From assembly GCA_963692915.1 (NCBI GenBank), contig OY843584.1, positions 1,408,001-1,472,000 on the forward strand: a stretch of DNA of 64,000 nucleotides, read 5' to 3'. Shown one piece after another: positions 2,702 to 17,399 of this stretch (its first letter is position 1; each line of letters starts with the position of its first letter). Source of the stretch: Cenarchaeum sp. GTDB lineage: Archaea; Thermoproteota; Nitrososphaeria; Nitrososphaerales; Nitrosopumilaceae. A program made the translations under genes and the position numbers. The notes under the pieces were generated by a model, which worked only from the letters and a program-made list of their open reading frames with translations, made no database searches and was not told where the DNA came from.

Positions 2702-2982
2702 ATGACGCCGGACATGACGAGTATCAGCGTAAACGAGGTCACGATTATCAGGAATCCTGTCACAAAGAGCGGCTTTGGCGACTTTGAGCTCGTCGAACGG
2801 TACACGGCAAGGCCGCCGAGCAGGCCCATAAAGAGAACGAGCACGCCGGCTATGACCTCGGCGAGCGAGCCGCCGCTAACAAACGGGTAAAAGACGCCAG
2901 AGAGCAGGGCAAAGAAGCCAATGAGATATGCGATCTTTATGCACGTAAGTGTGCGGCGTCCAAAGCTGGCCGTGTTGGCCAC
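2698..2982 (-). CDS. Small membrane protein, unknown function
   Basis: Three hydrophobic segments in the C-terminal part of ORF 2698..3144; GTG at 2982 just after the thermosome stop. Confidence 0.65.
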   Translation of the reverse strand: MANTASFGRRTLTCIKIAYLIGFFALLSGVFYPFVSGGSLAEVIAGVLVLFMGLLGGLAVYRSTSSKSPKPLFVTGFLIIVTSFTLILVMSGVI

Positions 2983-2993
2983 GTGCGCGTCAC

Positions 2994-4688
2994 TCACATC
3001 ATCCCGCCCATGTCGCCCATGCCACCCATACCGCCCATGCCTCCCATTCCGGGCATTCCACCCATGCCCCCTTCGGGGCCGCCGGGCGGCGGGCCGGCTG
3101 ACTTTGCGGTGGCCACAACGTCGTCGATGCGCAGTATCATGCATGCGGCCTCAGACGCGGCCGAGACGACCTGCATCTTTACTGCGAGGGGCTCGACTAT
3201 GTCACTTGACTTCATGTTTGCGATGCGCGCGCGCAGAACGTCGATGCCGGTCCACTTGTCGCCCTGCGTCTGCTTTGCGCGCAGCGAGGCAAGCGTGTCT
3301 ATCGGATCCATGCCGGCGTTCTCGGCTAGCGTGAGCGGTATGACCTCTAGTGCGTCAGCAAAGCGCTCGATTGCGAGCTGCTCTCGACCCTCGAGTGACT
3401 TTGCCCACGAGCGGAGGCGCGTGGCCGCGTACGTCTCAGGCGCGCCGCCGCCGGCGACGACGAAGGGCGACTGCATGACGTCCTTTACGACCATTATAGC
3501 GTCATGAACCGAGCGGTCGACCTCGTCGACTACGCGCTGCGAGCCGCCGCGCAGGAGGAGCGAGACGGACTTTGGGTGACGGCACCCCTCGATAAAGACC
3601 CACTTGTCCTCCTCGATCTTGCGCTCCTCGGCGAGGGCCGCCGAGCCCAGATCCTTCTCAAAGAGGTCATCGAGGTTTGTCACGATTCGCGCGCCAGTCG
3701 CACGCGAGAGCTTTGTCATGTCGCTCTCCTTTATCCGGCGAACTCCCATAATGCCGGCCTTTGCAAGATAGTGCTGGGCCATGTCGTCGATCGCCTTTTG
3801 GCAGAGCACGACGGTGGCGCCCGAGCCAATTATCTTGTCGACCATGCCCTTTAGCATCCTGTTCTCCTCGTCGAGGAACGCTTTCATCTGTTGCGGGTTT
3901 TGTATGTTGATCTTTGCGTCAGTCTCAGTCTTTGTGATCTCGAGCGCTGCGTTGATGAGGGCTATCTTTGCGTCCTTTATGCTGTCAGGCATGCCGGAGT
4001 GGACGACCTCCTTGTCAAGGATGACCCCCTCGACTATGGTCGAGTCGCCTATCGAGCCGCCGGCCTTTTTCTCCACCTTTATGTCGTCATCGTCCATCGT
4101 GTACGCGTCTCCCTCCTTTTCTGCGACGGCGAGTGCCGCCTTTACGACCATTGCGGCTAGCGCGTCAGAGTCCTTTCTGACGAGCTTTGTCTGCATTGAC
4201 GTCTTTGCGACCTTTGTGAGCATTGTCTTGTCACCGGCGCTCACATCCTCGGATATTTCGGCGAGGAGCTTTTTGGTCTTGGCCGCGGCCCTTCTGTATC
4301 CGTCAACGACTATGGTGGGATGAACGTTCTGGTTGAGGAGACCCTCGGCAGCCTCTAGGAGCCCACCGGCAAAGACGACGGCTGATGTCGTCCCGTCGCC
4401 GACCTCGTTGTCAGTCGTCTTTGCTATCTCGACGAGCATCTTTGCGGCCGGGTGCTGCACGTCTATCTCCTTTAGTATCGTCGCGCCGTCGTTCGTTATC
4501 GTGACGTCGCCTAGCGTGTCGACGAGCATCTTGTCCATGCCCCGTGGCCCGAGGCTAGTCGAGACTATCTCGGCGACTATCTTTGAGGCCTGGATGTTGT
4601 TCTTGTGCGCGTCACGACCCTTCGTCTCAGACGCACCGTCCTTTAACAGCACAACTGGCATGTTAGCCTTTGATGCCTGCACGCTCAT
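2994..4688 (-). CDS. ths: Thermosome (group II chaperonin) subunit
   Basis: [25 protein letters not shown] motifs; GGM-rich C-terminal tail. Confidence 0.97.
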
Positions 4689-4796
4689 GGGTGAGGGGCT
4701 TGAAATATACCTTTTAAACCTTGCTTGGATCCGAGGGTGGGCGCGGTGTTGGCCGGCGCGCAGATGTTTTAAATTGCGAGATATGCGCGCGTGCGC

Positions 4797-6161
4797 ATGG
4801 TGGCCACACGCAGGCGACCTGCCGCCAAGGCGGCCGGTTCGGGCAGCTCGACGGCAAAAAAGGCGTATATGCGCGTCTTTGGCTCCCTAAAGGACCACAG
4901 CCGCCTCTTCTCAGAGGCCATACCCCTCATAGCCAGCGAGAACATCCCCTCGCCGGCGGTGCGCGAGGCCCTCCTGTCAGACTTTGGAAACAGGTATGCC
5001 GAGGGGTGGCCCGGCGAGCGCGTCTATGCGGGGTGTGCGCATATCGACAAGGTCGAAGTCGAGTGCATGAGGCTTGCGAGGCGGCTGTTCAAGGCAGAGT
5101 TTGCCGACGTGAGGCCGATCTCTGGCGTCGTTGCAAACCTCGCGATATACTCGGCGTTTAGCGACCCCGGCGACACGATGATCGCCCCGTCGATACCGGC
5201 CGGCGGGCACATCTCGCACGGCAAGCGCGAGCACTCTGGGACAGCCGGCCTCGTCCACGGGCTCAACATCGAGTTTTACCCGTTTGACGCAGACGAGATG
5301 GCCATTGACGTTGATGCGACCAAAAAGAAGGTTCGTGCGCTAAAGCGTGACGGGCGCACGCCGAGGATGGCGATGCTCGGCGGATCGCTCTTCCTGTTCC
5401 CGCACCCCGTCGCCGAGCTCGCCGGATTCTTCAAGTCGCACAAGATGCACCTAAACTATGACGCCGCGCATGTCGCCGGCCTCATAGCCGGCGGCAAGTT
5501 TCAGGATCCGCTGCGTGAGGGTGCCGATACGATGACGATGAGCACGCACAAGACGCTCTTTGGGCCGCAGGGCGGGCTCGTCCTGGGCGCAGAGTCGCAC
5601 GGCGAGGCCATAAAGCGCGCCGTCTTTCCTGGCCTCACAAGCAGCCATCACATACACCACATGGCCGCCAAGGCCGTCGCGTTTGCCGAGACGATCGAGT
5701 TTGGGCGCGCATACGCCGCGCAGGTCGTCACCAACGCAAAGCGCCTCGCCGAGGAGCTCAGCTCGCTGGGCCTCTGCGTGCTCGGCGAGCGGCGCGGGTT
5801 TACGCAGTCACACCAGATAGCCGTCAACGTCTGGGAGTACGCCGATGGCGGGACCGTCGAGGCTGCCCTAGAGCGGGCCAACATCATAGTCAACAGGCAG
5901 CTCATACCGGGTGACATAAAGGCCGGCCGCAACTATATGCGCCCCGGCGGCATACGCCTGGGCGTCTCGGAGGTCACGCGCCTCGGCATGCGCGGCGGCG
6001 AGATGGCCGAGATTGCGCGGCTCATAAAGGCCGCCATTGTGGACGGGGGTGACGCGCGCAGGATTCGCACCGCCGCGCGCGAGTTGCGAAAGAACCACCA
6101 AAAGGCGAGGTACTGCTTTGACGGGCGCCTCGGCGCCTACGAGTATGTCAGGCTTCGCTAG
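4797..6161 (+). CDS. glyA: Serine hydroxymethyltransferase
   Basis: [38 protein letters not shown] (PLP lysine). Confidence 0.96.
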
Positions 6162-6170
6162 GCAGGCCCC

Positions 6171-9100
6171 CTACGCATAGTCGGCAAGGACGGTCTGGTC
6201 GCCGCTTGCGCTCCCAAAGACGAGGTCTATCTCGCTGGCCATCATGTAGATTCGCCCACGCAGATAGCTCCCGACGTCGTACGCGTCGACTAGGCGCGTG
6301 GCCATCTTTAGGTACTTTTCGACTGACGGGCGCGTTATCGTCGCGATGAGCTCGTTTGAGCAGTGCTTGCCGTTGACCGTGTTGATGCACTTGCGCGCAA
6401 GGGGCACGCGGCGGTACTTTGTGCCGCACTTTGTGCAGCGAAACTCCTGCGTCGCGTACGCGCGAAGGTTGCCCGTGAGGTCCGGAATGAGGTGGGTCGA
6501 TATCACGTTGGAGACGATCTCTGAGGTGTCGACGGCGTTTATGAGGTCGGCCACGCGTATCTGCATCTCTAGCTTTTCGTCCATCGAGTTTAGCGTAGAG
6601 TATGCGCTGCGGAGGCGCGATGTCACAAGGGACGTCGTCTCGTGGGTGAACGCATATCCCCCGTACTGGCTAGCCTTGCCGATGCGCGACTTTACCGTCT
6701 CGATGCACTTTACGTCAGTCGCCTTTGGGGCCTTGAGCGTCTCCTCAAAGAACTCGAGGGGCAGCGAGTCGACCACCTCGAGGTTATGGGCCTGGGACTG
6801 TGCCTCGTGCGGGAGGACGCGCGGCTGTATGAGGAGCGGCGCGTCCATGAGGCCCCCAATCCGGTCAGAGAGGAACTGGCGCGAAAAGTTGAGAAAGACG
6901 TCCATGAGCATCATCAGCGCGTCAGCATCGCCGTCAGCATCGCGCCTCTTGGCCGAGTGCCAGTTGGGCGTGCCGAGGCAGACATGCGTTGCCGCAAAGC
7001 CGACCACGCGCGTCACGATTCCCACCGACGTGTGCGGCGCGAGTCCGACGATGATGTGGCCGACGAGGTCGTCCTTGGTCTTTGCGCCATAATACGCCTT
7101 TGCGCCGTAGAGGCGCTCGAGCTCGGCGTCGACATACTGGCACGCCCTGAGGAGATAGTCAGCTGCGCCATCGGGTATGATCGCGTCCTGCGTGAACAGC
7201 TCGACTAGCTGTGAGGGCTCAGTCAGTGGCCTGCCCGACGTGTCCTTTTCGTAGCCGAGCTCCCTGAGGCGGGCCGGCGAGACGCCTGCCCACTCTGGCC
7301 TAAAGTGCGTCAGCGGCGCGTTTGTCGCCTCGTATCTCACGGTCCCGTCCTTGAAGGCGTTGAGGTCGTGGGCCTGCCGCAGGAGGCCCTTCTCTATGGG
7401 CTCGGCGACCTTGCCGTGGCCTGCGAGGCTAGTGACGCCCTTGAGGGGCTCGCGCGCCCTTGTCCGGACACGCTCCTGGGCCGCGGCGAGGACGCGCTTT
7501 AGCGGATAGCGCCTGTGCGCATGCGAGATCGTCTTGCGCTTGCAGCGCGAGCAGCGCTCCTCGTCAGTCTCCGTGCCGCAGCGGCCGCAGCGCCGCGTGA
7601 TCTTGGTCGCACCGCCGCACTCGCACCTCGTCGACACGGACGCCTCGCCGCACTCCTCGCACGTGCGGTTTGAGAGGTCCGCATAGAACTCTTCCTTGGC
7701 CACGGCGGCCTTTGCGATGCTGCGCGTCGGCCCGCCGTCATCACCGACCGGAAAGAGGACGTGGGCGGGGGGCTTCATCTTGCGCGCGGCGGCCTTTTCA
7801 GGCCGACCCATGCGTACGCCAACTGATGTCGAGAACTTTGGCCGGATCTCGATGCCCGATGCGGCCGTTATGGCCCCAATGACGCCGCCGGCAGCACCTG
7901 CGTCAGGGCGGCTCGAGAAGAGGAGAGCCTCAAAGATGTCGGCCTCATCGCCCTCCAGGACGCACCTTCCGTCGTCGTTCCTGTGCGGAACCGCAAGGCG
8001 CTCGAGGATCTTTTTTGCGGCCGGCCCGTACACGATGCGGCCCTCGGCGCGCGACTCGGGGGAGAGGAGCGTCTCAAGGCCCTCGACTGAGACGGCCTCC
8101 CAGTAGTGGAGGTATGCGGGATGGAGCGGCATGCCCGAGGAGCGCGAGATCTCCAGGGCCGCCTCGAGCGTCGGGCGGCCTGCGGCGAGTATTGGGCCGG
8201 CGGCCTCCTCGCCGAGCCTCTCGCGCAGCTCGGCGACCCACCACTCCTCGACGTATCCGGACGGGGGCATCTGCGCGCTGTTCTCGACAAAGTCGCCAAA
8301 GGAGACGAGAATGTCGCCGAGGTGGAGTATCTCGTCGATCTCGGTCTTTATTGACATACCGTGGGCCGCGTCGCGCACCTTGATGACATCGCCCCCCTTT
8401 AGGCGGACCGTCGGCGCCTCTATCGAGTCCACAAAGGCCACCGTGGCGCCCTTGCCGGGAACGTCCGTCTTTACCTGCGTGCCCACGGCTATCGCGTGGT
8501 CGAGTATCTCGGCGACGGCGGGGTGAAGGCCGACTGACGTAAAGCCCGTGTTGCACGCGCGCCCATAGCGGAGCCTAAAGCCGCCAAGCGTGTTGGGCTT
8601 TGAGAGAACGGGGCGGCCCGTGATGACCTCCCTCATGCGCTTCATCGCCGCCGTGTCGTCCTCGTCCTCGGCCCCGAGCTTTGCCTCTGCGCCCTTTAGC
8701 TCGCCAAGCCACTCCCAGCCCGAGATGCCATAGCGCTCGACCCTCTGGAGGAGCTTTTTGGAGCGGCCGATGAGCCCGTCGTTGAGCACGCGAAGCGCCC
8801 CGCCGCGCACGCGGTCAGTCTTTATGCGGGCCATGCCCTTGTGGTTGACGACCTCGTAAGAGTCCGTGTCCACGCCGTCGAGCTCGACGGGCAGGTTCGT
8901 TATCACCTTGACGATGTCCTCGTCGACTACGCGGTACTGAAAGTTGGAGGCCTCGCGCTCGTATATCCGGAGCTCCTCCACAAAGCGGCCCGACTCGTCA
9001 TCAAACGAGTTGGCCTTGTACTTTGCCAGGTTTGCCGCCTGTCTCACGTGATCCGCTATGAGCATCGTGACGGCCGACTCTGTGCCCCCGGCCGACCTCA

Positions 9101-9563
9101 TCGGGCCGGCGATCGAGAGTGAGAGGTATTCGGAGCCGTCTCTGTTCCTTTTTATGGAAATGTCGGCAATTCCTTGGAGCGGGGCGATCGTGACGCCCTC
9201 GGTCACCGTGGCCAGGCCCACACGTACGGCCCTGTCGAGGCGGTCTATGAGCTCCGAGCCCTCAGGCATGTGGCTTCCCAGGGCGATCTCGTGCGCTATG
9301 ATGAGGGCCGCGTGCTCCTTGCCCTTCTCGGCGAGGAGGCCCCTCAGGCGGTCAGCGACGTCAATGTCGAGCATCTTTGAGACGCGGTCGGCCAGGTCAT
9401 GGGCCAGGAGCGCATCTATCTTGGGCGTAGAGTCGGCCATGGAGTTTTTGGCCTCCCTGGCGTGGGCTAGTGCGCGATCGGTCTCGGCGACAAGGGAGTC
9501 ATAGTAGGCGCGGTAGTGGGGCGGCATCTCCGGACCGCCTAGTGAGACTGCCGTGCTAGGCAC
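6171..9563 (-). CDS. polC: DNA polymerase D large subunit (DP2)
   Basis: AGPMRSAGGT, GGFRLRYGR, RMGRPEKA, AKRRDADGDAD catalytic motif, Zn fingers; no intein evident. Confidence 0.97.
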   Translation of the reverse strand: MPSTAVSLGGPEMPPHYRAYYDSLVAETDRALAHAREAKNSMADSTPKIDALLAHDLADRVSKMLDIDVADRLRGLLAEKGKEHAALIIAHEIALGSHMPEGSELIDRLDRAVRVGLATVTEGVTIAPLQGIADISIKRNRDGSEYLSLSIAGPMRSAGGTESAVTMLIADHVRQAANLAKYKANSFDDESGRFVEELRIYEREASNFQYRVVDEDIVKVITNLPVELDGVDTDSYEVVNHKGMARIKTDRVRGGALRVLNDGLIGRSKKLLQRVERYGISGWEWLGELKGAEAKLGAEDEDDTAAMKRMREVITGRPVLSKPNTLGGFRLRYGRACNTGFTSVGLHPAVAEILDHAIAVGTQVKTDVPGKGATVAFVDSIEAPTVRLKGGDVIKVRDAAHGMSIKTEIDEILHLGDILVSFGDFVENSAQMPPSGYVEEWWVAELRERLGEEAAGPILAAGRPTLEAALEISRSSGMPLHPAYLHYWEAVSVEGLETLLSPESRAEGRIVYGPAAKKILERLAVPHRNDDGRCVLEGDEADIFEALLFSSRPDAGAAGGVIGAITAASGIEIRPKFSTSVGVRMGRPEKAAARKMKPPAHVLFPVGDDGGPTRSIAKAAVAKEEFYADLSNRTCEECGEASVSTRCECGGATKITRRCGRCGTETDEERCSRCKRKTISHAHRRYPLKRVLAAAQERVRTRAREPLKGVTSLAGHGKVAEPIEKGLLRQAHDLNAFKDGTVRYEATNAPLTHFRPEWAGVSPARLRELGYEKDTSGRPLTEPSQLVELFTQDAIIPDGAADYLLRACQYVDAELERLYGAKAYYGAKTKDDLVGHIIVGLAPHTSVGIVTRVVGFAATHVCLGTPNWHSAKRRDADGDADALMMLMDVFLNFSRQFLSDRIGGLMDAPLLIQPRVLPHEAQSQAHNLEVVDSLPLEFFEETLKAPKATDVKCIETVKSRIGKASQYGGYAFTHETTSLVTSRLRSAYSTLNSMDEKLEMQIRVADLINAVDTSEIVSNVISTHLIPDLTGNLRAYATQEFRCTKCGTKYRRVPLARKCINTVNGKHCSNELIATITRPSVEKYLKMATRLVDAYDVGSYLRGRIYMMASEIDLVFGSASGDQTVLADYA

Positions 9564-10323
9564 GCCTGCCCCCAGAGCCGAGCGCGCGGGCGATCGCCGA
9601 GAGGCGCCTCAGGCCCGATGCGCCAGAGCCCTCCAGGAGCGTCCCTATGACGAGGGCGTCGGCTCCGGCGTCGGCTAGCAGGCGCGCCGTCTTTGCGTCG
9701 CGGATGCCCCCGCCGACTATGATAATCCCGTCAAAGACCCCCCTGACGGCCTTGACCATCGAGGCCTCCACGCTCCTCTTGGCGCCTGATCCGGCCTCGA
9801 GATACACGAGGCGCATTCCCAGAAACTTGGCCGCTAGCGCGTATGCGGCAGCGATGCGAGGCTTGTCGTGGGGGATGCCTCGAGCCGAGCCGACAAACCA
9901 CGCAGACGTCCCCTCGCCCACGACGAGGTACGCCGTCGGCAGCGCCTCGAGGCCAAACTTTAGGACGCTCGGCGCGCCGAGGGCCTGGGCCTGCGTGATA
10001 AAGTAGGGGTTCTCCGAGTTCATCAGCGAGCTGAACAGTATCGCGTCGGCCTCTGGAACGACGCCGGTGACGTTGCCGGGAAAGAGGATGACGGGGATCT
10101 TTGTGGCCGCCTTTATGGAGCTGACCGTCTGCGCCATGCCCATCTGGTCCGTCGCCGAGGAGCCGCCCACGAGGATTGCCGAGGCGCCGAGGCGCTCGGC
10201 CTCCGAGGCCAGCCGTGCTGCCTCCTTGCCGTCAGAGGACTCCGAGTCGACTAGAACCAGGATCGCCGCGCGTGCGCGCTTGGCCTGCTCGCCAAGGTAT
10301 CGCTCGGTGCGCCCCACGGTCAT
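9556..10323 (-). CDS. Geranylgeranylglyceryl phosphate synthase
   Basis: ILVGGS, ILFPGN, YLEAGSGA, VGGGIR motifs; start MTVGRTE at 10323 (the longer track ORF runs into the IS). Confidence 0.92.
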   Translation of the reverse strand: MTVGRTERYLGEQAKRARAAILVLVDSESSDGKEAARLASEAERLGASAILVGGSSATDQMGMAQTVSSIKAATKIPVILFPGNVTGVVPEADAILFSSLMNSENPYFITQAQALGAPSVLKFGLEALPTAYLVVGEGTSAWFVGSARGIPHDKPRIAAAYALAAKFLGMRLVYLEAGSGAKRSVEASMVKAVRGVFDGIIIVGGGIRDAKTARLLADAGADALVIGTLLEGSGASGLRRLSAIARALGSGGRRA

Positions 10324-10375
10324 CGGCGCCGCGCCGTGGGGCTCTGCTTTAAAGTCTAATCCACCGCCCGTGGTA

Positions 10376-11471
10376 TGTGCCTTGTACGAAAAGTAGTAGA
10401 CTGGGCAGGAATGCTTGCCGGGCGCAGATCCGGGAGCCCCGGGGGCGCCCCGGGATCCGGCAGGCTGCCGAAACATACGTTTGGGGGGCTCCGCCGCCGG
10501 CGCGCCATGCCGGTCAGGAGGCTTGACGACAGGGCGCTCCGGTACGTGGCCAGGACGCTGGCGACGCGGAGCGCCGAGGAGGTGGCGCGCGAGCTGGGGA
10601 TCTCCAGGGCGTGGTCGTACAGGCTTCGCGCGCACTGCCGGCGCACCGGCGCGCCGCCGGAGCCGCGGCCGATGGGAAGGCCGCGCAGGGACGTCACCGA
10701 CGGCGAGGTGGCCGAGGTCCTCGGCGAGCACGCCGACCGGCCGGCCGGCGTCGTGCGCGTGGCCGAGGGGCTGCGCGGCAACAACTCAAAAATAACGTAC
10801 TGGTCGGTGTACCGCATCATGCTGGCGGAGGGGCTCGTCACGAGGTCGCGGGCGAAGTCGCGCAGGCGAAAGTGGGTCAGGTTCGAGCGCGCGCACTCCG
10901 GCGCGCTGTGGCACGTGGACTGGCACATAATGAAATACGGGCCACTTGCGGGCTCGCACCTCATAGTGTTCCTCGACGACGCGTCGCGGTGCGTCACGGG
11001 CTTTGGCGTGTTCGCCGAGGCCACGTCGGAAAACTCCGTGCTTGCGCTGCGAAAGGCGATCAGGATGTTTGGCGCGCCGGCGCAGATCCTCTCGGACCAC
11101 GGCACGCAGTTCACGGCAAGCCGGCGCGGCACGCCGAGCCGCAGCTGGACGCCGACGCTCTTCGAGCGGGAGCTGCTGGACCGCGACATAGCGCACCTCA
11201 TGGCGCGCGTCCGCCACCCCCAGACCAACGGCAAGGTCGAGAGGTTCTTCCAGACGCTCGAGACGGAGATCGGCCACTTTGGCGGGGTCCCCGAGTTCAT
11301 CGCGTACTACAACGAGAGGCGCCTCCACTTCGCCCTGGACATCAAGGGCGGCGAGACGCCCCTGCTGGCCTACAGGAGGCGCAGGGCCGACGGGCGGGTC
11401 CGGGCGGAGAACCCGAGGTGGATGGAGGTGGACTCGAATGAGTGAGTCTACTACTTTTCGTATAAAACACA
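10376..11471 (+). mobile_element. IS481-family insertion sequence, apparently intact
   Basis: 27-bp TIRs tgtgccttgtacgaaaagtagtagact (10376-10402) and agtctactacttttcgtataaaacaca (11445-11471), 3 mismatches, TGT...ACA ends; 12-bp direct repeat ccgcccgtggta at 10364-10375 and 11472-11483. Confidence 0.92.
10507..11445 (+). CDS. IS481-family DDE transposase (HTH + rve integrase core)
   Basis: N-terminal HTH VARELGISRAWSYR; DDE triad in WHVDWH, LSDHGTQF, HPQTNGKVERFF; YYNERRLH. Confidence 0.92.
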   Translation: MPVRRLDDRALRYVARTLATRSAEEVARELGISRAWSYRLRAHCRRTGAPPEPRPMGRPRRDVTDGEVAEVLGEHADRPAGVVRVAEGLRGNNSKITYWSVYRIMLAEGLVTRSRAKSRRRKWVRFERAHSGALWHVDWHIMKYGPLAGSHLIVFLDDASRCVTGFGVFAEATSENSVLALRKAIRMFGAPAQILSDHGTQFTASRRGTPSRSWTPTLFERELLDRDIAHLMARVRHPQTNGKVERFFQTLETEIGHFGGVPEFIAYYNERRLHFALDIKGGETPLLAYRRRRADGRVRAENPRWMEVDSNE

Positions 11472-11481
11472 CCGCCCGTGG

Positions 11482-11591
11482 TATGAGGCCAGCGCCTCTG
11501 CCAGTTCATGCCTAGACAGGCGCCGAAGTGGCAAGTAGATCGACAGAATGCGCCTATTTGGCCAAAAGGGGTGGGGGGTGCTGGCCTCATA
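11482..11591. mobile_element. 110-bp MITE-like element, copy 1
   Basis: TIRs tatgaggccagc / gctggcctcata; flanked by ccgcccgtgg at 11472-11481 and 11592-11601; interior homologous to 62335-62445. Confidence 0.8.
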
Positions 11592-11603
11592 CCGCCCGTG
11601 GGG

Positions 11604-11708
11604 CGCCCTGTACGAAGAGTAGGCTGGGTGCCTGCCTGGCGCAGATCCGGGGCTCCGTAAGGCCGCTGGGCGGGCAGGGCGCTGCCTTGTACGAAGAGTG
11701 GGCTGGGT
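11604..11708 (+). mobile_element. Two degenerate relics of the IS481 left end
   Basis: cgccctgtacgaagagtaggctggg...ggcgcagatccgggg and tgccttgtacgaagagtgggctggg resemble the IS left end tgtgccttgtacgaaaagtagtagactggg...ggcgcagatccggga. Confidence 0.65.
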
Positions 11709-11788
11709 GGGGGCTTTCCAGGCACGGTGTCCAGGATCGCCTTGCGTTCAACGTTTAATTGGCCCATGTCATACCGTTTTGTATAGCT

Positions 11789-12151
11789 ATGAGCGACCCC
11801 GAGTCACATGAGTTTAATGCCGTAATCAAGCATATTATACAAAAATCGCTGTTTACAGAGCGTCAAGTTCAAATTATTCTAAGACAGCGGCGACGCGCCG
11901 GGGTTGGTTTTGGCATAAGTAGAGGCGCGTATTACAGGCAGGCAAGCCAATCTAGGGACAAAATGGGGCGCCTCTACTATACGATCAGTCTTTTGTGGGG
12001 TCTTGGCGTTCTCGAGCCTCGTGACATTGATGTGATGTCTCATCTTGCAGAACAGATCAAAGGTCTCAAAGATAGTGATATTTTAGATGGTCGTGAGGAA
12101 GACATCACACAGGTACTTGACAAAATTGTCAGTCAGGCGTGCAATATGTGA
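11789..12151 (+). CDS. Origin-proximal hypothetical protein, probable HTH DNA-binding
   Basis: SLFTERQVQII...GISRGAYYRQ resembles a sigma-4/Tfx-like HTH; TATA-like tttaatt upstream. Confidence 0.7.
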   Translation: MSDPESHEFNAVIKHIIQKSLFTERQVQIILRQRRRAGVGFGISRGAYYRQASQSRDKMGRLYYTISLLWGLGVLEPRDIDVMSHLAEQIKGLKDSDILDGREEDITQVLDKIVSQACNM

Positions 12152-12899
12152 TATTGTGTATCACCCTAGCCACAAATATCGTGATTTTAAGGCGTGATGT
12201 AGTTGTCTAAATAGTGAATTTATGTTGTTCTATCACAATATATCACAGTGTGTTTGTGACTTGCCCATGCAGGTCGAGATTCCCGACCCCAACGTCCTTC
12301 TTGGGCTGGTCACGGCGTTTGTGATCGGCCTTTTAGTCATAATTATACTCAACAAGGTGCGTCCATACGTGAATTTGAGCCCAAGGGGCGACGGAGAGTG
12401 GCGCGCCTCGCGTATTGACGAGTACGAGCGCCAGTTGGTAGAGATGAAAATTCGTCTAGACGCAGCAGGTATTGGGAGTGTGGGTGGTGATGTGACTAGT
12501 ATATCACAAGATGTTGTGGGGACGGCAGAGTCCGGATTGGAGACTGCCGTGGTTGACCAAAACAAGGCTAAAACTACGCCTAAATCACCCCAACAACCAA
12601 CGCCGGTGGCTCAAGAGACCAATCACGTCACATATCACAACGCCACAGAGCAGGTGTTACATATGGTCACAACAAGTGCAAAAACATCACGTGATATTCA
12701 AGCCGCCCTGGGTAAGAGTAGGGAGCACACTGCCAGACTCCTCAAAAAACTCTATGATGAGGGACTTGTTGAAAGGAACGCAAAGTCGCGGCCATACACC
12801 TACTCTATCACGGAAAGTGGCCAAAGGCGGCTTGGATCTGCAGACGGTCGGTTATAGAGCCCCTGTGGTGATGTTGGTTGTGGGTTGTGGTGATGTTGG
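12032..12899. repeat. Dense dispersed array of GTGAT/ATCAC pentamers
   Basis: 20 copies counted by eye between 12032 and 12894, including palindrome atcacgtgat (12686-12695) and direct repeat tgtggtgatgttgg (12864, 12886). Confidence 0.75.
12267..12857 (+). CDS. Membrane-anchored winged-helix DNA-binding protein (TM helix - coiled coil - linker - wHTH)
   Basis: N-terminal VLLGLVTAFVIGLLVIIIL; RIDEYERQLVEMKIRLD coiled coil; C-terminal TSRDIQAALGKSREHTARLLKKLYDEGLVER..PYTYSITESG (MarR/TrmB-like wHTH). Confidence 0.8.
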   Translation: MQVEIPDPNVLLGLVTAFVIGLLVIIILNKVRPYVNLSPRGDGEWRASRIDEYERQLVEMKIRLDAAGIGSVGGDVTSISQDVVGTAESGLETAVVDQNKAKTTPKSPQQPTPVAQETNHVTYHNATEQVLHMVTTSAKTSRDIQAALGKSREHTARLLKKLYDEGLVERNAKSRPYTYSITESGQRRLGSADGRL

Positions 12900-12954
12900 G
12901 TTGTAATGCGCCCAGGCCGATATTTTGGGCTGTGAATTGGTGGAATTGTAGGCC

Positions 12955-13020
12955 ATTTTATTATTATTTAATAAAATAATAAATTATAATATATGAGTAT
13001 TAATGATATATATTGTCAAT
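12955..13020. promoter_or_regulatory. Extremely AT-rich tract (possible duplex-unwinding element and/or promoter of the AbrB-like gene)
   Basis: attttattattatttaataaaataataaattataatatatgagtattaatgatatatattg, almost all A/T in a GC-rich window. Confidence 0.6.
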
Positions 13021-13036
13021 GTTTGGGGGGTTGCGC

Positions 13037-13177
13037 GTGTTGGTCAAGATCACCGCAGCCGGAACCATCACGATTCCGAAGCAGATGAGGCGGTATATGG
13101 ATGTGCGCCGTGGTGACTATGTAAAGGTCGATCTAGAGGGAGATCGCCTGGTTGTCACTAAGGCCGTGGTGTCGTAG
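13037..13177 (+). CDS. AbrB/MazE/SpoVT-family DNA-binding microprotein (46 aa, absent from ORF track)
   Basis: Manual translation MLVKITAAGTITIPKQMRRYMDVRRGDYVKVDLEGDRLVVTKAVVS* fits the swapped-hairpin consensus. Confidence 0.85.
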   Translation: MLVKITAAGTITIPKQMRRYMDVRRGDYVKVDLEGDRLVVTKAVVS

Positions 13178-13571
13178 GTGGCAGGCGTTGTGGGAGGATG
13201 GCCCTGTCGGCGGCTCTGTATGACCACTCGCGGCCGTTTCGTGTGCGTGCCAGACGGCCCCTGTGCGTAAAACGCGCCAGATAGGTCGAGATCACGCTCA
13301 GTTTTATGGGTCGGTTATACTCGTCCTCATACTTTTCGAGTATTGTGGAGGAGGTAAATCGGCCTATTGGGTAGTTCCTCTCAACTGTGGCCCATATGCG
13401 GCCCCCCACACTGTCAGGCGTCTGGCCTTCTGGGGGCGCCTCGACGTCAATGAGATTCATGGTCTCAAACACCTTTAGGATCTTCTCCCTAGTGACTTTG
13501 CCAGTCACGGTCATGCGAAAAACGGCCCCCTCGTCGTCCTCAACGTCGATGGTCACCTTTCTCTTTGCCAT
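13158..13571 (-). CDS. Origin-proximal hypothetical protein with C-terminal winged helix
   Basis: FTSSTILEKYEDEY..PIKLSVISTYLARFTHRGRLARTRNGREWSYR; divergent from cdc6 across the origin. Confidence 0.75.
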   Translation of the reverse strand: MAKRKVTIDVEDDEGAVFRMTVTGKVTREKILKVFETMNLIDVEAPPEGQTPDSVGGRIWATVERNYPIGRFTSSTILEKYEDEYNRPIKLSVISTYLARFTHRGRLARTRNGREWSYRAADRAILPQRLPPTTPRP

Positions 13572-13722
13572 TGGGACACAGCCTGAAACCCCCCTTACAC
13601 TTGAAACGATCCGATCAGATTTGTTAACGTTATACGTTGTTAATGTTGCCTGCCTAGCCTAGGCATGGGGTGCCGTGGCCTGTTCACACACTGCCGCCAT
13701 GCCCACCCCCAAATATCCCACG

Positions 13723-13813
13723 AATTCACGCCTAGAGTGGAAATAAGGGGGTTAAAATGGGTTGTTAACGCGGTTAAGATGTAAATTCACGCCTAGAGTG
13801 GAAATAAGGGGGT
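13723..13813 (+). promoter_or_regulatory. Two ORB-like origin recognition boxes (30-bp exact direct repeat)
   Basis: aattcacgcctagagtggaaataagggggt at 13723-13752 and 13784-13813; GTGGAAA core plus G-string; upstream of cdc6. Confidence 0.85.
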
Positions 13814-13900
13814 CAAAACGGCCTTTTTGGACGTCTTGTTCACACAATCTTGACTGTGTGTGAACGTCGTCAGGCTTCACGCCTCGCCGACTCCTTCCAC

Positions 13901-14021
13901 AACCCACACACCACCATTTCCACTCCTTTTTCTTTCATTTTTTTTCTAAAAATACAAGATAGAGATGAGATGAAAGGCAAGAAAAGGAATGTTGTGGAGT
14001 GGAAGGGAAGGTGTGTGGGTT
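13901..14021. promoter_or_regulatory. Inverted ORB-like pair flanking an AT-rich spacer (probable oriC core)
   Basis: aacccacacaccaccatttccactcc (13901-13926) vs ggagtggaagggaaggtgtgtgggtt (13996-14021), 22/26 inverted match, enclosing a 69-bp T-rich then A-rich spacer. Confidence 0.75.
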
Positions 14022-14103
14022 TGGATCACTGAAACGATCCATGTTGTTAAATTAAGCTGGGGGATCATTTCAAGAGGTAGGGCTACGACCCCACGATCTC
14101 AAA

Positions 14104-15321
14104 ATGAGCACGACCACACTCGACCCCCTAGATCGCCTCTTAGAGGCCGCAGAGAGCGGGACTGCGATCATACGCAATAGGGAGGTTCTGCGGTCTGACT
14201 ATATGCCAAAGATGATCAGGCACCGCGACGAGGAGCAAGAGCTAGTCGCCCAGACGCTCCTTCCAATACTAAAGCGCGCCCGCCCCTCAAACCTCCTAGT
14301 CTATGGCCGCCCTGGAACTGGCAAGACACTCGTTGTGAGGCGCGTCCTTTTAAAAATACAAGAGAGGGCCGCAACTGGCGACTTTCCAATCAGGCTGGTG
14401 TATGCCAACTCCAAGAACGAGACGACAATGTATGCGCTTCTTGTTAGTTTTGGCCGCCAGCTGGGCCTTAATGAAAAAAGGATTCCCACCACAGGCCTCT
14501 CAATAAGCGAGGTCTTTAAACGCCTAATCAGCGAGATCAACAAGAGGTCGATTAACGCCGTGTTTGTGATTGACGAGATCGACCACCTCGCGCGCCTCAC
14601 CTCCAAATCCCACAAGGACATACTCTACCAGATGACCAGGGCCAACGAGCTCCTTGATGGCGGCTCGCTCACCCTTGTGGGCATATCCAACGACCTCGCC
14701 TTCAAGGATGGCCTGGATCCGCGCGTGATCAGCAGCCTGGGCGAGGAGGAGATCGTCTTTGCGAGCTATACAACCGATCAGATACGCCGCATATTAGAGG
14801 AGCGCATTACCGACGCCCTCATCGGCCCCAACACCGTCGAGGAGGCCGCACTCCACCTCTGCGCAGCAAAGGCCGGCAGCGAGCACGGCGACGCGCGCCG
14901 CGCCATCGACACACTTCGTGTGGCCGCCGAGGCCGCCGAACGAGCCGGCGCGTCGACAATATCCCAGGACCACGTTCTCACGGCGGCAGCAAAGATGGAG
15001 GAGAGAAAAGAGGTTGCCGCGCTGCGCTCCTACCCGCTCCACGAAAAGCTCCTCGTCATAGCCGTGATGAAGTCCAGTGGGGCCTCGACGGGGGAGATAT
15101 ACGCCGCGTACCGCGACCTCTGCAGGCGCACGGGCCAAAAGAACCTCACACAGAGGCGGGCCACGCAGATGCTTAGCGAGATAGAGATGTCCGGGATAGC
15201 CTCTGGCCGGATCACACACCAGGGCATGCACGGCCGAACCAAAAAATTCAAGCTACTCGTCGCCACCGAGACTGTCACCGAGGCGTTCGGTGAGGATCTT
15301 GCCCTCTCTGACCTGCTCTAG
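14104..15321 (+). CDS. cdc6: Orc1/Cdc6 replication initiator
   Basis: HRDEE, Walker A GRPGTGKT, Walker B VIDEID, GDARRAID, C-terminal winged helix. Confidence 0.96.
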   Translation: MSTTTLDPLDRLLEAAESGTAIIRNREVLRSDYMPKMIRHRDEEQELVAQTLLPILKRARPSNLLVYGRPGTGKTLVVRRVLLKIQERAATGDFPIRLVYANSKNETTMYALLVSFGRQLGLNEKRIPTTGLSISEVFKRLISEINKRSINAVFVIDEIDHLARLTSKSHKDILYQMTRANELLDGGSLTLVGISNDLAFKDGLDPRVISSLGEEEIVFASYTTDQIRRILEERITDALIGPNTVEEAALHLCAAKAGSEHGDARRAIDTLRVAAEAAERAGASTISQDHVLTAAAKMEERKEVAALRSYPLHEKLLVIAVMKSSGASTGEIYAAYRDLCRRTGQKNLTQRRATQMLSEIEMSGIASGRITHQGMHGRTKKFKLLVATETVTEAFGEDLALSDLL

Positions 15322-15349: not shown

Positions 15350-16780
15350 CTACTCTAGCCCAAAGGCGCGCTGCTCGGCCTTTAGCGTTCTTAGGTTTAC
15401 GACTATGGCGCGGCCCACGGTGGGGCGAATGCCCTGGCTGGCCTGAAAGGACGTCTGTTTTTGCCACGTGCCCGAGTTGACCATAAGCACGCCCCTGTAC
15501 TGTTCGGCGCCGACGACGTGGACGTGGCCAGAGTGAAAGATGTCAGGCGCCTCCTCTATGACCATCATGTCTTCGGTCTCTGGCGCCACGGGCGTGCTCC
15601 CCCCATATATCGGGCAGAGGTGCCTTGCGCGCAGGAGGTACTTCATGGCGCCTGCGGGTCGGTCATAGCTGAGGCCCTGCGCGGACTTTACAATGTCATC
15701 GATGCTCTGCCCGTGATACATAAGGACGCGCACGCCGTTGAGGCTGACAGTGGCCGGATTGCCGACCATCCTGACGTTTGGGCGTCCCCACAAGCCAGGC
15801 GCGCACCCGCGGGGGATCGCCGGCTGGGGGAGCGCGCGCCTCCCCGGATCGTGGTTGCCCGGCGATATCACCACGTGCATGCGCTCGGGGATCTGCCCGA
15901 CGAGCTCGTCGAGGCGCGCGAGCTGCTCCTCGGCAGTCTGCAGCACGAGATCCCTGTCCTGACCGCGGTATATCCCAACACCATCAACGACATCGCCGCA
16001 CATGAGGACGTGCCCAACACGGCGCGCAGTCGGCTCATCACTAGACAGCCACGAGACGAGCCCATCAAAGGCGGCCTCGTCAAAGTTGCGGCTTCCGACG
16101 TGGAGGTCAGAGAGGAGAACCGCATAGACCTCTGATGCTGACACCCTCGGGCTGTGCCCCGAGACGTCGGGAATCGATATCTCGCGCGCAATCGGCCCGC
16201 CGTCCCTGCCGGCGACCACGCGAACCATGACAAACTGATCCGTGACGAGGGAGCCCGTCGTGGCCCGCGCCTCCTCGTCATACACTGCGAGCTCGAGGCT
16301 TCCGGTGGGGTCCTCGATGACTAGCCTGTCAGATTTGCCCGAGCCGGTTTTGCGCTCACTGACGAGGCCGCACGTGTGCGCACCGTCATCGATGCGACCC
16401 TCCTTTATGGCCGATATGCGCCTGAGCGACTTGCCCTCAGACCGGCGCGAGACGAGGGCCCGCATCTTTTCATACCTGCTCACAAAGAGCGCGCCGAACC
16501 CCCCGACACCCTCGCCTGAGGCGGTTCTTCCCGTGGGATCGCTTATCGTCTCGCAGATGGCCTCAAAGGGCTCGTCGATTGGCGCAACGCCGAGTGCGCC
16601 GGCCATGTCTACGCCGCTGATGGTTCGGTCGCCGCGCCTCTCCTTTCTCCGGACGACCTCGCGGATCGCGCGCTGGATCATTCCTGCGTCAGCTGACTCT
16701 AGGACGCGGATCGCATCAGGGTGAACCTGAAAGCCCCGCCTTAGGGCAAATTGGAGAACTGCTGCAATGTCGCCGCCCAC
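15350..16780 (-). CDS. polB: DNA polymerase D small subunit (DP1, proofreading exonuclease)
   Basis: SDLHVGS, GDVVDGVGIY, PGNHD, YHGQSIDD, HSGHVH, NSGTWQ; GTG start 16780 inferred. Confidence 0.94.
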   Translation of the reverse strand: MGGDIAAVLQFALRRGFQVHPDAIRVLESADAGMIQRAIREVVRRKERRGDRTISGVDMAGALGVAPIDEPFEAICETISDPTGRTASGEGVGGFGALFVSRYEKMRALVSRRSEGKSLRRISAIKEGRIDDGAHTCGLVSERKTGSGKSDRLVIEDPTGSLELAVYDEEARATTGSLVTDQFVMVRVVAGRDGGPIAREISIPDVSGHSPRVSASEVYAVLLSDLHVGSRNFDEAAFDGLVSWLSSDEPTARRVGHVLMCGDVVDGVGIYRGQDRDLVLQTAEEQLARLDELVGQIPERMHVVISPGNHDPGRRALPQPAIPRGCAPGLWGRPNVRMVGNPATVSLNGVRVLMYHGQSIDDIVKSAQGLSYDRPAGAMKYLLRARHLCPIYGGSTPVAPETEDMMVIEEAPDIFHSGHVHVVGAEQYRGVLMVNSGTWQKQTSFQASQGIRPTVGRAIVVNLRTLKAEQRAFGLE

Positions 16781-16874
16781 GAGCGGCTCGCCGGCGGGGT
16801 TTCTAATTAATCTGACCGCCGGGCCTGCGTGCATGCCGACTGCTTTATACCACGCCCGCGGCGACGGGCGGGGC

Positions 16875-17399
16875 ATGATACGGCTGTGGGCGTTCCTGGC
16901 AGCAACGGGGGCGTTCCTCGGCATGTACCTTGTGGGCTCCCTCGTCGAGCCCGCCGAGGCCGAAGCCGAGAGGTTCATGGAGGAGTTTGAGAGCCTCGTG
17001 GACGGAATCGACGCGCTTGGCATATTTGTGCACAATTCGATGCTCGCCGCGCCAATGTTCCTGCCCGGCCTGGGCCCGGCAGTCGGCCTCTATTCTGCGT
17101 GGTCCACGGGATACGCGTTTGCGGCGATCTCGATGAGCGTGCCGGCGGTGCAGGGCATTCCGGCCATAGCGATCCTTCTCACCCCCGTCGGCCTCATGGA
17201 GCTCGCCGCGTACTCGCTGGGCATGTCACGCGGCGCGCTCTTTGGCCTGGCCCTCCTGCGCTCAAGGCCCGCCCGCCCGCACCTCCGCATGGTGGCCATC
17301 GAGGGCGCCGTCGCCGCAGCGCTCCTGGCCGTCGCCGCAGTGGTGGAGCACGCCGCCATAACGGCCACGGGACTCGCCCCGTCGGCCGCATCAGTCTAG
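16875..17399 (+). CDS. SpoIIM-like membrane protein
   Basis: GIFVHN, TPVGLMELAAY, AAVVE motifs; several TM helices. Confidence 0.75.
   Translation: MIRLWAFLAATGAFLGMYLVGSLVEPAEAEAERFMEEFESLVDGIDALGIFVHNSMLAAPMFLPGLGPAVGLYSAWSTGYAFAAISMSVPAVQGIPAIAILLTPVGLMELAAYSLGMSRGALFGLALLRSRPARPHLRMVAIEGAVAAALLAVAAVVEHAAITATGLAPSAASV

Follow-up and report, generated by a model that had tools for sequence, protein, structure and literature searches.

A cassette of four small genes, g1 to g4, lies beside the replication origin in a 64,000-nucleotide stretch of Cenarchaeum sp. contig OY843584.1 (assembly GCA_963692915.1, positions 1,408,001 to 1,472,000; hereafter the window), which comes from a genome assembled as one contig (1.64 Mb, 59% GC). 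Judged by comparison among relatives, the cassette is old and conserved, and its second gene, g2, which encodes a winged helix-turn-helix (wHTH) protein with a predicted transmembrane (TM) anchor, is, together with an array of short sites over the gene itself, a candidate for holding the origin region at the membrane. We tentatively read the locus as a vertically inherited module that flanks the origin and is made of two sub-units, one comprising g1, g2 and the array and the other g4. With the same reserve, and at somewhat less than even confidence, we take the first of these to be a membrane-anchored unit that binds its own DNA and has been retained near the origin.

The array consists of GTGATRT sites (AYATCAC on the other strand) that lie in and around g2, as the first-pass annotation of this DNA had described for a dense motif array overlapping the block. 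We counted 13 sites where 1.6 are expected, and the largest number seen in 200 shuffles of the region, which kept local base composition, was 6. The genome as a whole holds 376 such sites (0.23 per kb); the array is its densest 900-bp window, and the runner-up holds 4. The first six sites are spaced by 43, 27, 46, 46 and 46 bp. Two inverted site pairs occur within the array, the 17-bp palindrome GTGATAttgtgTATCAC at 12148–12164 and ATCACGTGAT at 12686. Paired half-sites are about as frequent across the genome as chance predicts; the totals are 11, 22 and 4, to each of which the locus contributes one. Because there is no second motif cluster and no excess of paired half-sites elsewhere, a regulon is not visible.

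The array recurs in relatives. For the stretch from g1 to cdc6 in 21 loci, the motif count was above all 200 shuffles in 14, matched the highest of them in 5 and fell short of it in 2. Relative site positions are shared across genera as well: 244 (13/21 loci), 287 (16/21), 360 (9/21) and the g2 start codon (13/21). Where sites overlie g1, the codons that encode a given residue are uniform, with GTG for V82 in 15/15 sequences, GTG for V92 in 14/14, AGT for S96 in 10/10, and TGA as the stop codon in 15/17. These data point to selection on the DNA of the array itself. That the array is purely a by-product of amino-acid conservation is partly rejected; the codon-choice test opposes it, but that test is inflated by relatedness. 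As a separate observation, the sites at 12102, 12148, 12194 and 12240 are phased at 46 bp, and spacings of 43–46 bp or their sums recur at conserved positions elsewhere (244, 287, 360, about 403 and about 487).

Between g1 and g2 lies a spacer (12152–12266) of 36% GC. Comparison of the 21 loci revealed within it a conserved element of ∼45 bp, TGTGAA..TC.ATCACRATAAATCAC, which ends 25–30 bp before the g2 start codon. This element would be the g2 promoter, and its position would make the g2 transcript leaderless.

Base composition gives a second indication that the DNA of g1 and g2 is constrained. The block from 11789 to 13571 has a GC content of 0.49, compared to 0.66 and 0.65 in the flanks, in line with the lower GC that the first-pass annotation had noted. 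GC content at third codon positions (GC3) is 0.45 for g1, 0.53 for g2, 0.68 for g3 and 0.66 for g4, while the genes for the large and small subunits of DNA polymerase D (PolD-L and PolD-S), PcrB, cdc6 and the transposase of a nearby insertion sequence (IS) range from 0.73 to 0.90. In the window and in five other high-GC relatives (L013–L016 and L021), GC3 of g1 and g2 is 15–37 points under that of the flanks, and in 15 low-GC relatives it equals the flanks, with no depression. Since the drop in GC falls at synonymous sites, and only in high-GC relatives, the block is not foreign DNA. Judged by these third positions, the synonymous sites of the block resist the GC drift of the genome.

The protein encoded by g2 has its DNA-binding domain at the C terminus. 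Residues 129–185 match the Pfam family HTH_27 (29.1 bits versus a cutoff of 22.2, profile positions 7–68 of 68), and the domain is MarR/TrmB-like. The remainder of the protein comprises an acidic N-terminal tail of 9 amino acids (aa), a TM segment (∼10–28), a basic stretch, a conserved helix (RIDEYERQLVEMKIRLDA) and a variable linker. In an alignment of 20 orthologs (A1), the tail reads MLVEIPD in most sequences and is followed by one strongly hydrophobic helix, then by the basic stretch and the conserved helix, (E)RLEYYE.QLIDMKIRLDALE. The segment that had been called a coiled coil corresponds to this conserved helix-like segment. Neither the recognition helix nor the wing varies within A1; it is the linker between the helix and the wHTH that does. 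An upstream ATG at 12222 was rejected as the g2 start codon, the orthologs beginning at the position that matches 12267.

We read the membrane topology of g2 from hydropathy and charge (the positive-inside rule). The protein has one hydrophobic 19-aa window (residues 10–28, Kyte–Doolittle mean 3.19), and a single such window is present in 20/20 of the A1 sequences, with means of 2.0–3.4. The tail that precedes it has a net charge of −1 to −4 in 19/20 sequences, and the 15 residues that follow it carry +1 to +5, again in 19/20. With an acidic tail before the helix and a basic stretch after it, the pattern is that of a signal anchor rather than a cleaved signal peptide, and a cleaved signal peptide was rejected on the acidity of the tail. 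These features suggest a single-pass signal anchor, with the N terminus outside and the DNA-binding domain in the cytoplasm. A test set beforehand, that the N-terminal helix be conserved and not be a cleaved signal peptide, thus came out in favor of the anchor. Only 6–11 residues of g2 would be outside the membrane, so the protein has no sensor domain there. Among 27 more distant homologs, 20 have the TM helix; in Bathyarchaeia-type forms some 130 residues make up the helical segment. We found no fused or longer forms of g2, which is weak evidence only, and PDB profile searches with g1, g2 and g4 gave nothing better than an E value of 0.36.

We then asked how widely the cassette is distributed and how closely it keeps to the origin. 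A g2 homolog is present in 39 of 41 relatives, and the order PcrB–g1–g2–g4–cdc6 is the same in 20/20 close loci. In a class-wide sample, g2 was found in 98 of 121 genomes. It lies ≤2.2 kb upstream of cdc6 on the same strand in 71 of these 98, at the end of a record that begins with cdc6 in 7, within 2.2 kb in another orientation in 1, and at 2.2–12 kb in 12, of which 11 belong to one family. The other 7 could not be evaluated, with g2 and cdc6 on different contigs in 5 and cdc6 not found in 2. Hence g2 is directly upstream of cdc6, or so placed across a record start, in 78 of 91 evaluable genomes, and the linkage to cdc6, which had also been set as a test beforehand, is borne out.

Conservation extends beyond the class. 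For 10 genomes of other orders, 7 keep g1–g2–g4–oriC–cdc6, 1 has all the genes but in a different order, 1 has only g2 nearby and 1 has only g4. A phylum-wide sample gave matches in 88/151 genomes, and among 18 phylum-level loci g1 is present in 12, g4 in 14, and cdc6 within 5 kb in 10. The source names of identical proteins include Bathyarchaeia, Brockarchaeota, Caldiarchaeum and Methanomethylicia, with Nitrosopumilus and Nitrosocosmicus among the close relatives. The homologs themselves are named 'hypothetical', 'winged helix DNA-binding', 'MarR/ArsR/BlaI family', 'membrane protein', 'transcriptional regulator' or 'HTH'. The first-pass annotation had implied a system special to this lineage; that implication does not survive, given conservation of the cassette across the phylum. 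A literature search over the full text of articles returned no description of these genes or of origin–membrane attachment in these archaea.

Three rearranged genomes (G022, G011 and G021) serve as natural REARRANGEMENTS. In G022, PolD-L–PcrB–g1–g2 is 59 kb away from g4–oriC–cdc6–PolD-S; in G011, g2 and g4 are split by a 7-kb insertion; and G021 carries the block in inverted orientation, with no g4 found. In each case GTGATRT sites stay with g1 and g2 (8 in G022, 12 in G011, 7 in G021), and the g4–oriC–cdc6 stretch of G022 has a single site. Because the sites remain with g1 and g2 when these are moved, the array belongs to g1–g2 and not to the origin proper. On these comparisons, g1, g2 and the array are a self-contained unit under selection at the DNA level, kept beside or near oriC over very long times.

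The neighboring origin is supported by several features. As the first-pass annotation had it, repeats of the origin recognition box (ORB) type and cdc6 sit directly beside the gene block. No further copy of the 38-nt direct repeat occurs anywhere in the genome. A mini-ORB is present at the same relative place in 15/21 loci and is paired in 10 of these under a strict pattern. Between the inverted arms is a tract of 26% GC, a candidate unwinding element, and a search of 11400–14200 against Rfam gave sub-threshold hairpin matches over the inverted arms and nothing else. The orc1/cdc6 product matches TIGR02928 with 340 bits (cutoff 181). The cumulative GC skew of the genome peaks at kb 1434 and is lowest at kb 639, which puts the locus (kb 1420–1423) about 11–14 kb from the maximum. 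On its repeats, AT-rich tract, adjacent cdc6 and skew, we accept the spacer between g4 and cdc6 as an archaeal oriC of the ORB/Orc1-Cdc6 type. The origin of N. maritimus was reportedly first mapped by Pelve et al. in 2013. According to a review, mapping in that organism gave a single origin (PMC4010727).

The g1–g3 block itself contains pieces of the ORB outer half (AGGCGTGA; GTGAATT/AATTCAC), at 12190–12197, 12214, 12369 and 12932, with AATTCAC found 5 times versus 0.33 expected and AGGCGTGA 4 times versus 0.33. Given this enrichment, Orc1/Cdc6 might also touch the g1–g3 block. The spacer between g2 and g3 (12858–13036) contains a twice-repeated GTGGTGATGTTGG.TTGTGG segment at 12862–12905 (reported by Tandem Repeats Finder as 12872–12904) and a 76-bp tract of 16% GC (12940–13015), which is more AT-rich than the candidate unwinding element (26%) and might serve as a promoter for g3 or as another region that melts easily.

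Table 1. Positions within the window of the four genes, the site array, the origin elements and the flanking genes
Feature	Position	Strand	Description
PolD large subunit	6171–9563	−	flanking gene
GGGP synthase (PcrB)	about 9556–10296	−	gene diverging from g1
IS481-family element	10376–11471		27-nt inverted ends, 89% complementary; transposase gene 10375–11445
g1	11789–12151	+	120 aa; open reading frame
Array of 13 GTGATRT/AYATCAC sites	12032–12896	both	3′ half of g1, g1–g2 spacer, g2, start of g2–g3 spacer
g2	12267–12857	+	196 aa; HTH_27, alignment A1, hydropathy and charge
g3	13037–13177	+	46 aa; AbrB/SpoVT-type microprotein
g4	13158–13571	−	137 aa; AlphaFold2 model, Foldseek
Spacer between g4 and orc1/cdc6			532 bp; contains ORB-type repeats
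Direct ORB-type repeats	13723–13760 and 13784–13821	+	38 nt, 95% identical; each contains AGTGGAAATAAGGGGG
Inverted ORB-like arms	13901–13926 / 13996–14021		26 nt; flank 69-bp tract of 26% GC (13927–13995)
orc1/cdc6	14104–15321	+	TIGR02928, Cdc6_C and lid domains
PolD small subunit	15350–17035	−	flanking gene
Genes farther out			GINS51, glutamine synthetase, thermosome subunit, SHMT, SpoIIM-like membrane protein, CDC48

All four small genes are real and are where the first-pass annotation had put them, its position 13571 being the start of g4 on the minus strand. The 3′ ends of g3 and g4 overlap by 20 bp, and g4 is transcribed away from oriC, divergent from cdc6. That annotation had further assigned DNA-binding folds to all four. 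The assignment stands for g2 (by Pfam), g3 (by Pfam and NCBIfam) and g4 (by the AlphaFold2 model and Foldseek), while the helix-turn-helix (HTH) of g1 was not verified, g1 having no family match.

For g1, no match was obtained in Pfam, NCBIfam or the PDB profile search. Its residues 8–41 align weakly to the start of the g2 wHTH (hhalign probability 17.6%), and one weak lead in the Atlas (0.81) is to a cluster in which 14% of the members carry Sigma70_r4; apart from this lead, the Atlas homologs of g1 and g4 fall in Nitrososphaerota clusters of their own. Thus g1 is of no known family, with a possible N-terminal HTH. It is always directly upstream of g2, and orthologs are present in 20/20 close loci, 8/10 class-level genomes and 12/18 phylum-level loci.

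The protein g3 has the AbrB/SpoVT (MazE) fold, with 34.0 bits to PF04014 (cutoff 24.7) and 37.8 bits to TIGR01439 (cutoff 28.3). It is found in 16/20 close loci and in none of 11 + 18 distant loci, and on this distribution g3 joined the cassette later and is found in the close family alone.

The matches of g4 in Pfam are all below threshold (PaaX, 19.5 versus 24.8; Penicillinase_R, 15.2 versus 22.6), and 19 of 20 g4 orthologs give weak matches to Penicillinase_R, the best with an E value of 5.9e-4. The AlphaFold2 model has a mean predicted local distance difference test score (pLDDT) of 74, and 10-residue blocks over residues 51–120 average 81–93. It predicts an N-terminal beta-hairpin and helix followed by a C-terminal winged helix. 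Foldseek relates the model to NolR, SqrR, SmtB, ArsR, MarR and BlaI-type winged helices, with a best E value of 2.1e-3 at probability 1.00 and no match at E ≤ 0.001. Membership in BlaI/MecI/CopY (Penicillinase_R) was rejected, as the score is below the cutoff and the winged helix is C-terminal, whereas the family needs an N-terminal wHTH and a C-terminal dimerization domain. One 356-aa match without domains was the only longer form of g4, again weak evidence.

The surroundings are rich in replication genes, with GINS51 (602–1198), both PolD subunits and orc1/cdc6 all within 17 kb. The cassette and origin are bracketed by the two PolD genes, and this order recurs in loci with Bathyarchaeia and Brockarchaeota names (L046, L061). 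The IS481-family element sits in the spacer between g1 and the GGGP synthase gene, ∼80 bp upstream of the latter. It has 7 identical full-length copies and 3 diverged copies in the genome and so appears to be active, and two solo end-sequence remnants lie just downstream of it (11588–11620 and 11683–11709). In four loci with Bathyarchaeia names (L044, positions 5539–8077; L045, L055 and L058), a gene for a HerA-like ATPase (DUF87, E 2.4e-8) lies between g2 and g4, and a conserved 339-aa protein of no known family is also encoded there, beside oriC/cdc6. In one family of the class (f23; locus L037 of G071, 1927–5496), potassium-transport genes (for KdpA and a P-type ATPase) and a gene for ribosomal protein L21e lie between cdc6 and g2, and g1 and g4 were not detected with the profiles used.

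How might such a unit work? In the reading that we prefer, the winged helix of g2, by itself or together with g1, would bind the array that spans the g2 promoter and the two coding regions; binding would probably be as a dimer on the inverted site pairs. The complex of protein and DNA would be fixed at the membrane, g2 being anchored there by its N terminus with the DNA-binding domain on the cytoplasmic side. Since the distance between cassette and oriC stays at about 1–60 kb, origin-proximal DNA would be held at the cell envelope, for positioning or segregation or for control of initiation, and the same sites would autoregulate g2. The second sub-unit would enter through g4, which shares the ORB-bearing intergenic region with orc1/cdc6 and for this reason is probably co-regulated with the initiator. 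We infer the identity of the protein on the array, the membrane topology, the dimerization and every downstream effect. As no dispersed regulon is visible, the output of the unit must be local, and for a membrane-anchored protein that binds its own locus, no local output is simpler than the placement of that locus. On this ground we rank the tether first, if only slightly ahead of plain regulators. The tether hypothesis has come through every sequence-level test and is unproven.

Several observations weigh against this interpretation. MarR/TrmB-type winged helices are mostly ordinary transcription factors, and sites are packed most closely over the g2 promoter, as simple autoregulation predicts. 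The motif was chosen from the region itself, and in a control that allowed any motif (7-mers with one two-fold position, 3654 genome tiles), 104/3654 tiles reached at least 13; the words in these 104 tiles are CGCGCGC-type at overlapping offsets, homopolymers, other GC-rich words and periodic tandem repeats. Relatedness inflates the codon test, with p < 0.01 in 41 of 121 columns. In loci beyond the ammonia-oxidizing archaea (AOA), enrichment of GTGAT is weak or absent (L034, 2 versus 1.3 expected; L056, 4 versus 4.0), and GTGAT was rejected as a class-wide motif because enrichment fades in this way outside the AOA order. Seven of the 27 distant g2 homologs have no TM helix (the Methanomethylicia-type and Brockarchaeota-type forms). 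Position varies as well: g1–g2 is separable from oriC by 8–59 kb, and in genomes with TM-less forms (Methanomethylicia names) the g2–g4 pair lies 115–193 kb from the best cdc6 match. Together, the TM-less forms and the distant g2–g4 pairs indicate that neither the anchor nor proximity to the origin is essential to the protein family. Finally, a warning against reading function from origin proximity comes from the precedent of haloarchaeal OapA, which, on the account given in PMC10927574, was linked to replication by its proximity to an origin alone and was shown to drive vesicle formation, and to which no replication function could be assigned.

Much of this would be expected if g1–g4 were ordinary local transcription factors regulating themselves and perhaps g4, cdc6 or the GGGP synthase gene, with the array serving as operators. 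We regard this as the closest contender, somewhat doubtful yet far from implausible, and hold the same opinion of its corollary, that the membrane anchor controls activity by sequestration or proteolytic release and is not a tether. The g2 wHTH is of the MarR/TrmB/ArsR type, g4 resembles ArsR/BlaI-type repressors and g3 is of the AbrB type. The sites are concentrated at the g2 promoter, which includes the 17-bp palindrome as well as the conserved element beside a TATA-like sequence; soluble homologs lacking the TM helix exist; and the source names of the homologs are all 'transcriptional regulator', 'HTH' or 'hypothetical'. The origin-adjacent but vesicle-making OapA, as described in PMC10927574, would be a parallel. 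Nevertheless, a promoter would not require as many as 13 sites over 865 bp, most of them within coding sequence and preserved at synonymous positions. Neither a second cluster nor an excess of paired sites was seen elsewhere in the genome. Outside the membrane g2 has no sensor domain, and a diffusible factor would have no need of an oriC neighborhood maintained across the class.

It is also conceivable, although we give the idea little credence, that two unrelated units are involved, g4 being an accessory of the origin or initiator and g1–g2 an independent self-regulating pair, with their adjacency reflecting low rearrangement in an island of essential replication genes (PolD-L, GGGPS, cdc6, PolD-S). 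The breaks always fall between g2 and g4, and g4–oriC–cdc6–PolD-S and PolD-L–PcrB–g1–g2 each stay together (G022, G011). In family f22, g4 is beside cdc6 and g2 was detected in 0/8 genomes. A relative with a Caldiarchaeum name has g1–g2, at 15 kb from its best cdc6 match, and no g4 nearby. Yet g2 and g4 are adjacent and convergent in L048, L050, L051, L057 and L059, where cdc6 is 115–193 kb away, which argues for a functional g2–g4 link that does not depend on the origin. Moreover, the gene order is kept across orders and classes in which other flanking genes vary.

A horizontally acquired low-GC island, or a toxin–antitoxin or mobile cassette, merits almost no belief: the low GC of the block, the abutting IS481-family element with its 27-nt inverted repeats and the best Pfam name of g3, 'MazE antitoxin', would suit it, but it is excluded by the synteny of the block in 20/20 close loci and beyond, identity to relatives falls in parallel for g2 (96/62/54/about 40%) and cdc6 (99/82/70/about 65%), the IS481 element is 1 of 7 identical copies and is absent here in 18/20 close loci (PcrB–g1 gap of about 100–360 bp; apart from the window, only G001, of the same genus, departs from this), and none of the four proteins matches a toxin family (PIN, MazF or Doc), the neighbors of g3 being the winged-helix proteins g2 and g4, so that a type II toxin–antitoxin pair is excluded for g3, which has no adjacent toxin gene. 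Elsewhere in genome G000, 2-kb windows of 31–37% GC (kb 1244–1246, 1522–1527, 1315–1316, 146–149 and 88–89) contrast with the 59% GC of the whole and are probably foreign islands.

A further-reaching version of the tether, which we consider unlikely, is that g1–g2–g4 is the long-sought device for origin anchoring or partition in archaea devoid of ParAB and SegAB, with g2 doing alone the job that RacA and DivIVA share. In such a device, g2 would form a phased (46-bp) complex on a centromere-like array over its own gene and thereby pin the origin region to the membrane, while g4, co-regulated with Orc1/Cdc6 through the ORB region, would couple anchoring to initiation. The device would be ancient, common to genomes with Nitrososphaeria, Bathyarchaeia, Brockarchaeota and Caldiarchaeum names, and it would stand beside the HerA-like ATPase in four Bathyarchaeia-type loci. 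To our knowledge, how chromosomes are positioned and separated in archaea without ParAB or SegAB, the ammonia oxidizers included, has not been established, nor has the way in which initiation is coupled to the envelope and the cell cycle. Ammonia oxidizers are abundant in sea and soil, and the cassette makes the question of origin positioning directly testable, offering three expressible proteins and a defined DNA target of 0.9 kb, whose conservation reaches from cultured relatives (Nitrosopumilus and Nitrosocosmicus) to genomes of the Bathyarchaeia type for proteins and target alike. Even if these proteins are plain regulators, their phylum-wide oriC neighborhood is a useful marker of archaeal origin regions, and coding sequence whose synonymous sites resist the GC shift of the genome would be a second one.

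Like MarR/TrmB/ArsR and AbrB/SpoVT regulators, g2 passes the HTH_27 cutoff, g3 passes those of PF04014 and TIGR01439, and the g4 model superposes on ArsR/SmtB/BlaI-type structures; unlike in BlaI, the predicted winged helix of g4 is C-terminal and follows a small beta-alpha domain. We know of no member of the MarR/TrmB/ArsR or AbrB/SpoVT families with an N-terminal TM anchor and a site array covering its own gene beside oriC. Membrane-bound one-component transcription factors include the ToxR/CadC type and archaeal ArnR; those of the ToxR/CadC type have an N-terminal DNA-binding domain and a sensor domain beyond the membrane. With its wHTH tethered by a TM helix, g2 resembles these proteins, which are the nearest model for the plain-regulator alternative. 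In contrast to ToxR/CadC, the domain order of g2 is reversed and only a few residues would lie outside the membrane, which places it outside that family. Haloarchaeal OapA/B/C (now ArvA/B/C), comprising a small GTPase and DUF2073 and DUF2072 proteins, are described as encoded beside an orc/cdc6-linked origin (PMC10927574). Position beside an origin is likewise what drew attention to g1–g4, although the proteins are unrelated.

With the anchoring and partition systems no sequence relationship is seen: none of the RacA, ParB, Noc or SegB families appears among the Pfam/NCBIfam matches of g1–g4 at E ≤ 1, and no ParA/SegA-type ATPase was identified among the 13 flanking open reading frames scanned against Pfam. 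ParB (on parS), Noc and archaeal SegB are site-specific binders of centromere-like clusters near origins, and Noc contacts the membrane by an amphipathic helix. As proposed here, g2 would similarly be a DNA binder with sites in or beside its own gene, near the origin, but its membrane contact, unlike that of Noc, would be a true TM helix. In Bacillus subtilis, RacA acts with DivIVA to anchor the origin region during sporulation; the HTH of RacA is N-terminal and MerR-like, and DivIVA provides its link to the membrane. By comparison, the wHTH of g2 is C-terminal and MarR/TrmB-like, the protein has a TM helix of its own, and its putative sites lie within 0.9 kb over its own gene rather than being spread across the origin region. 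Nevertheless, like RacA, g2 combines a DNA-binding domain with a helical spacer, is predicted to be attached to the membrane and has a cluster of short sites near the origin, and RacA is thus the nearest model for a tether.

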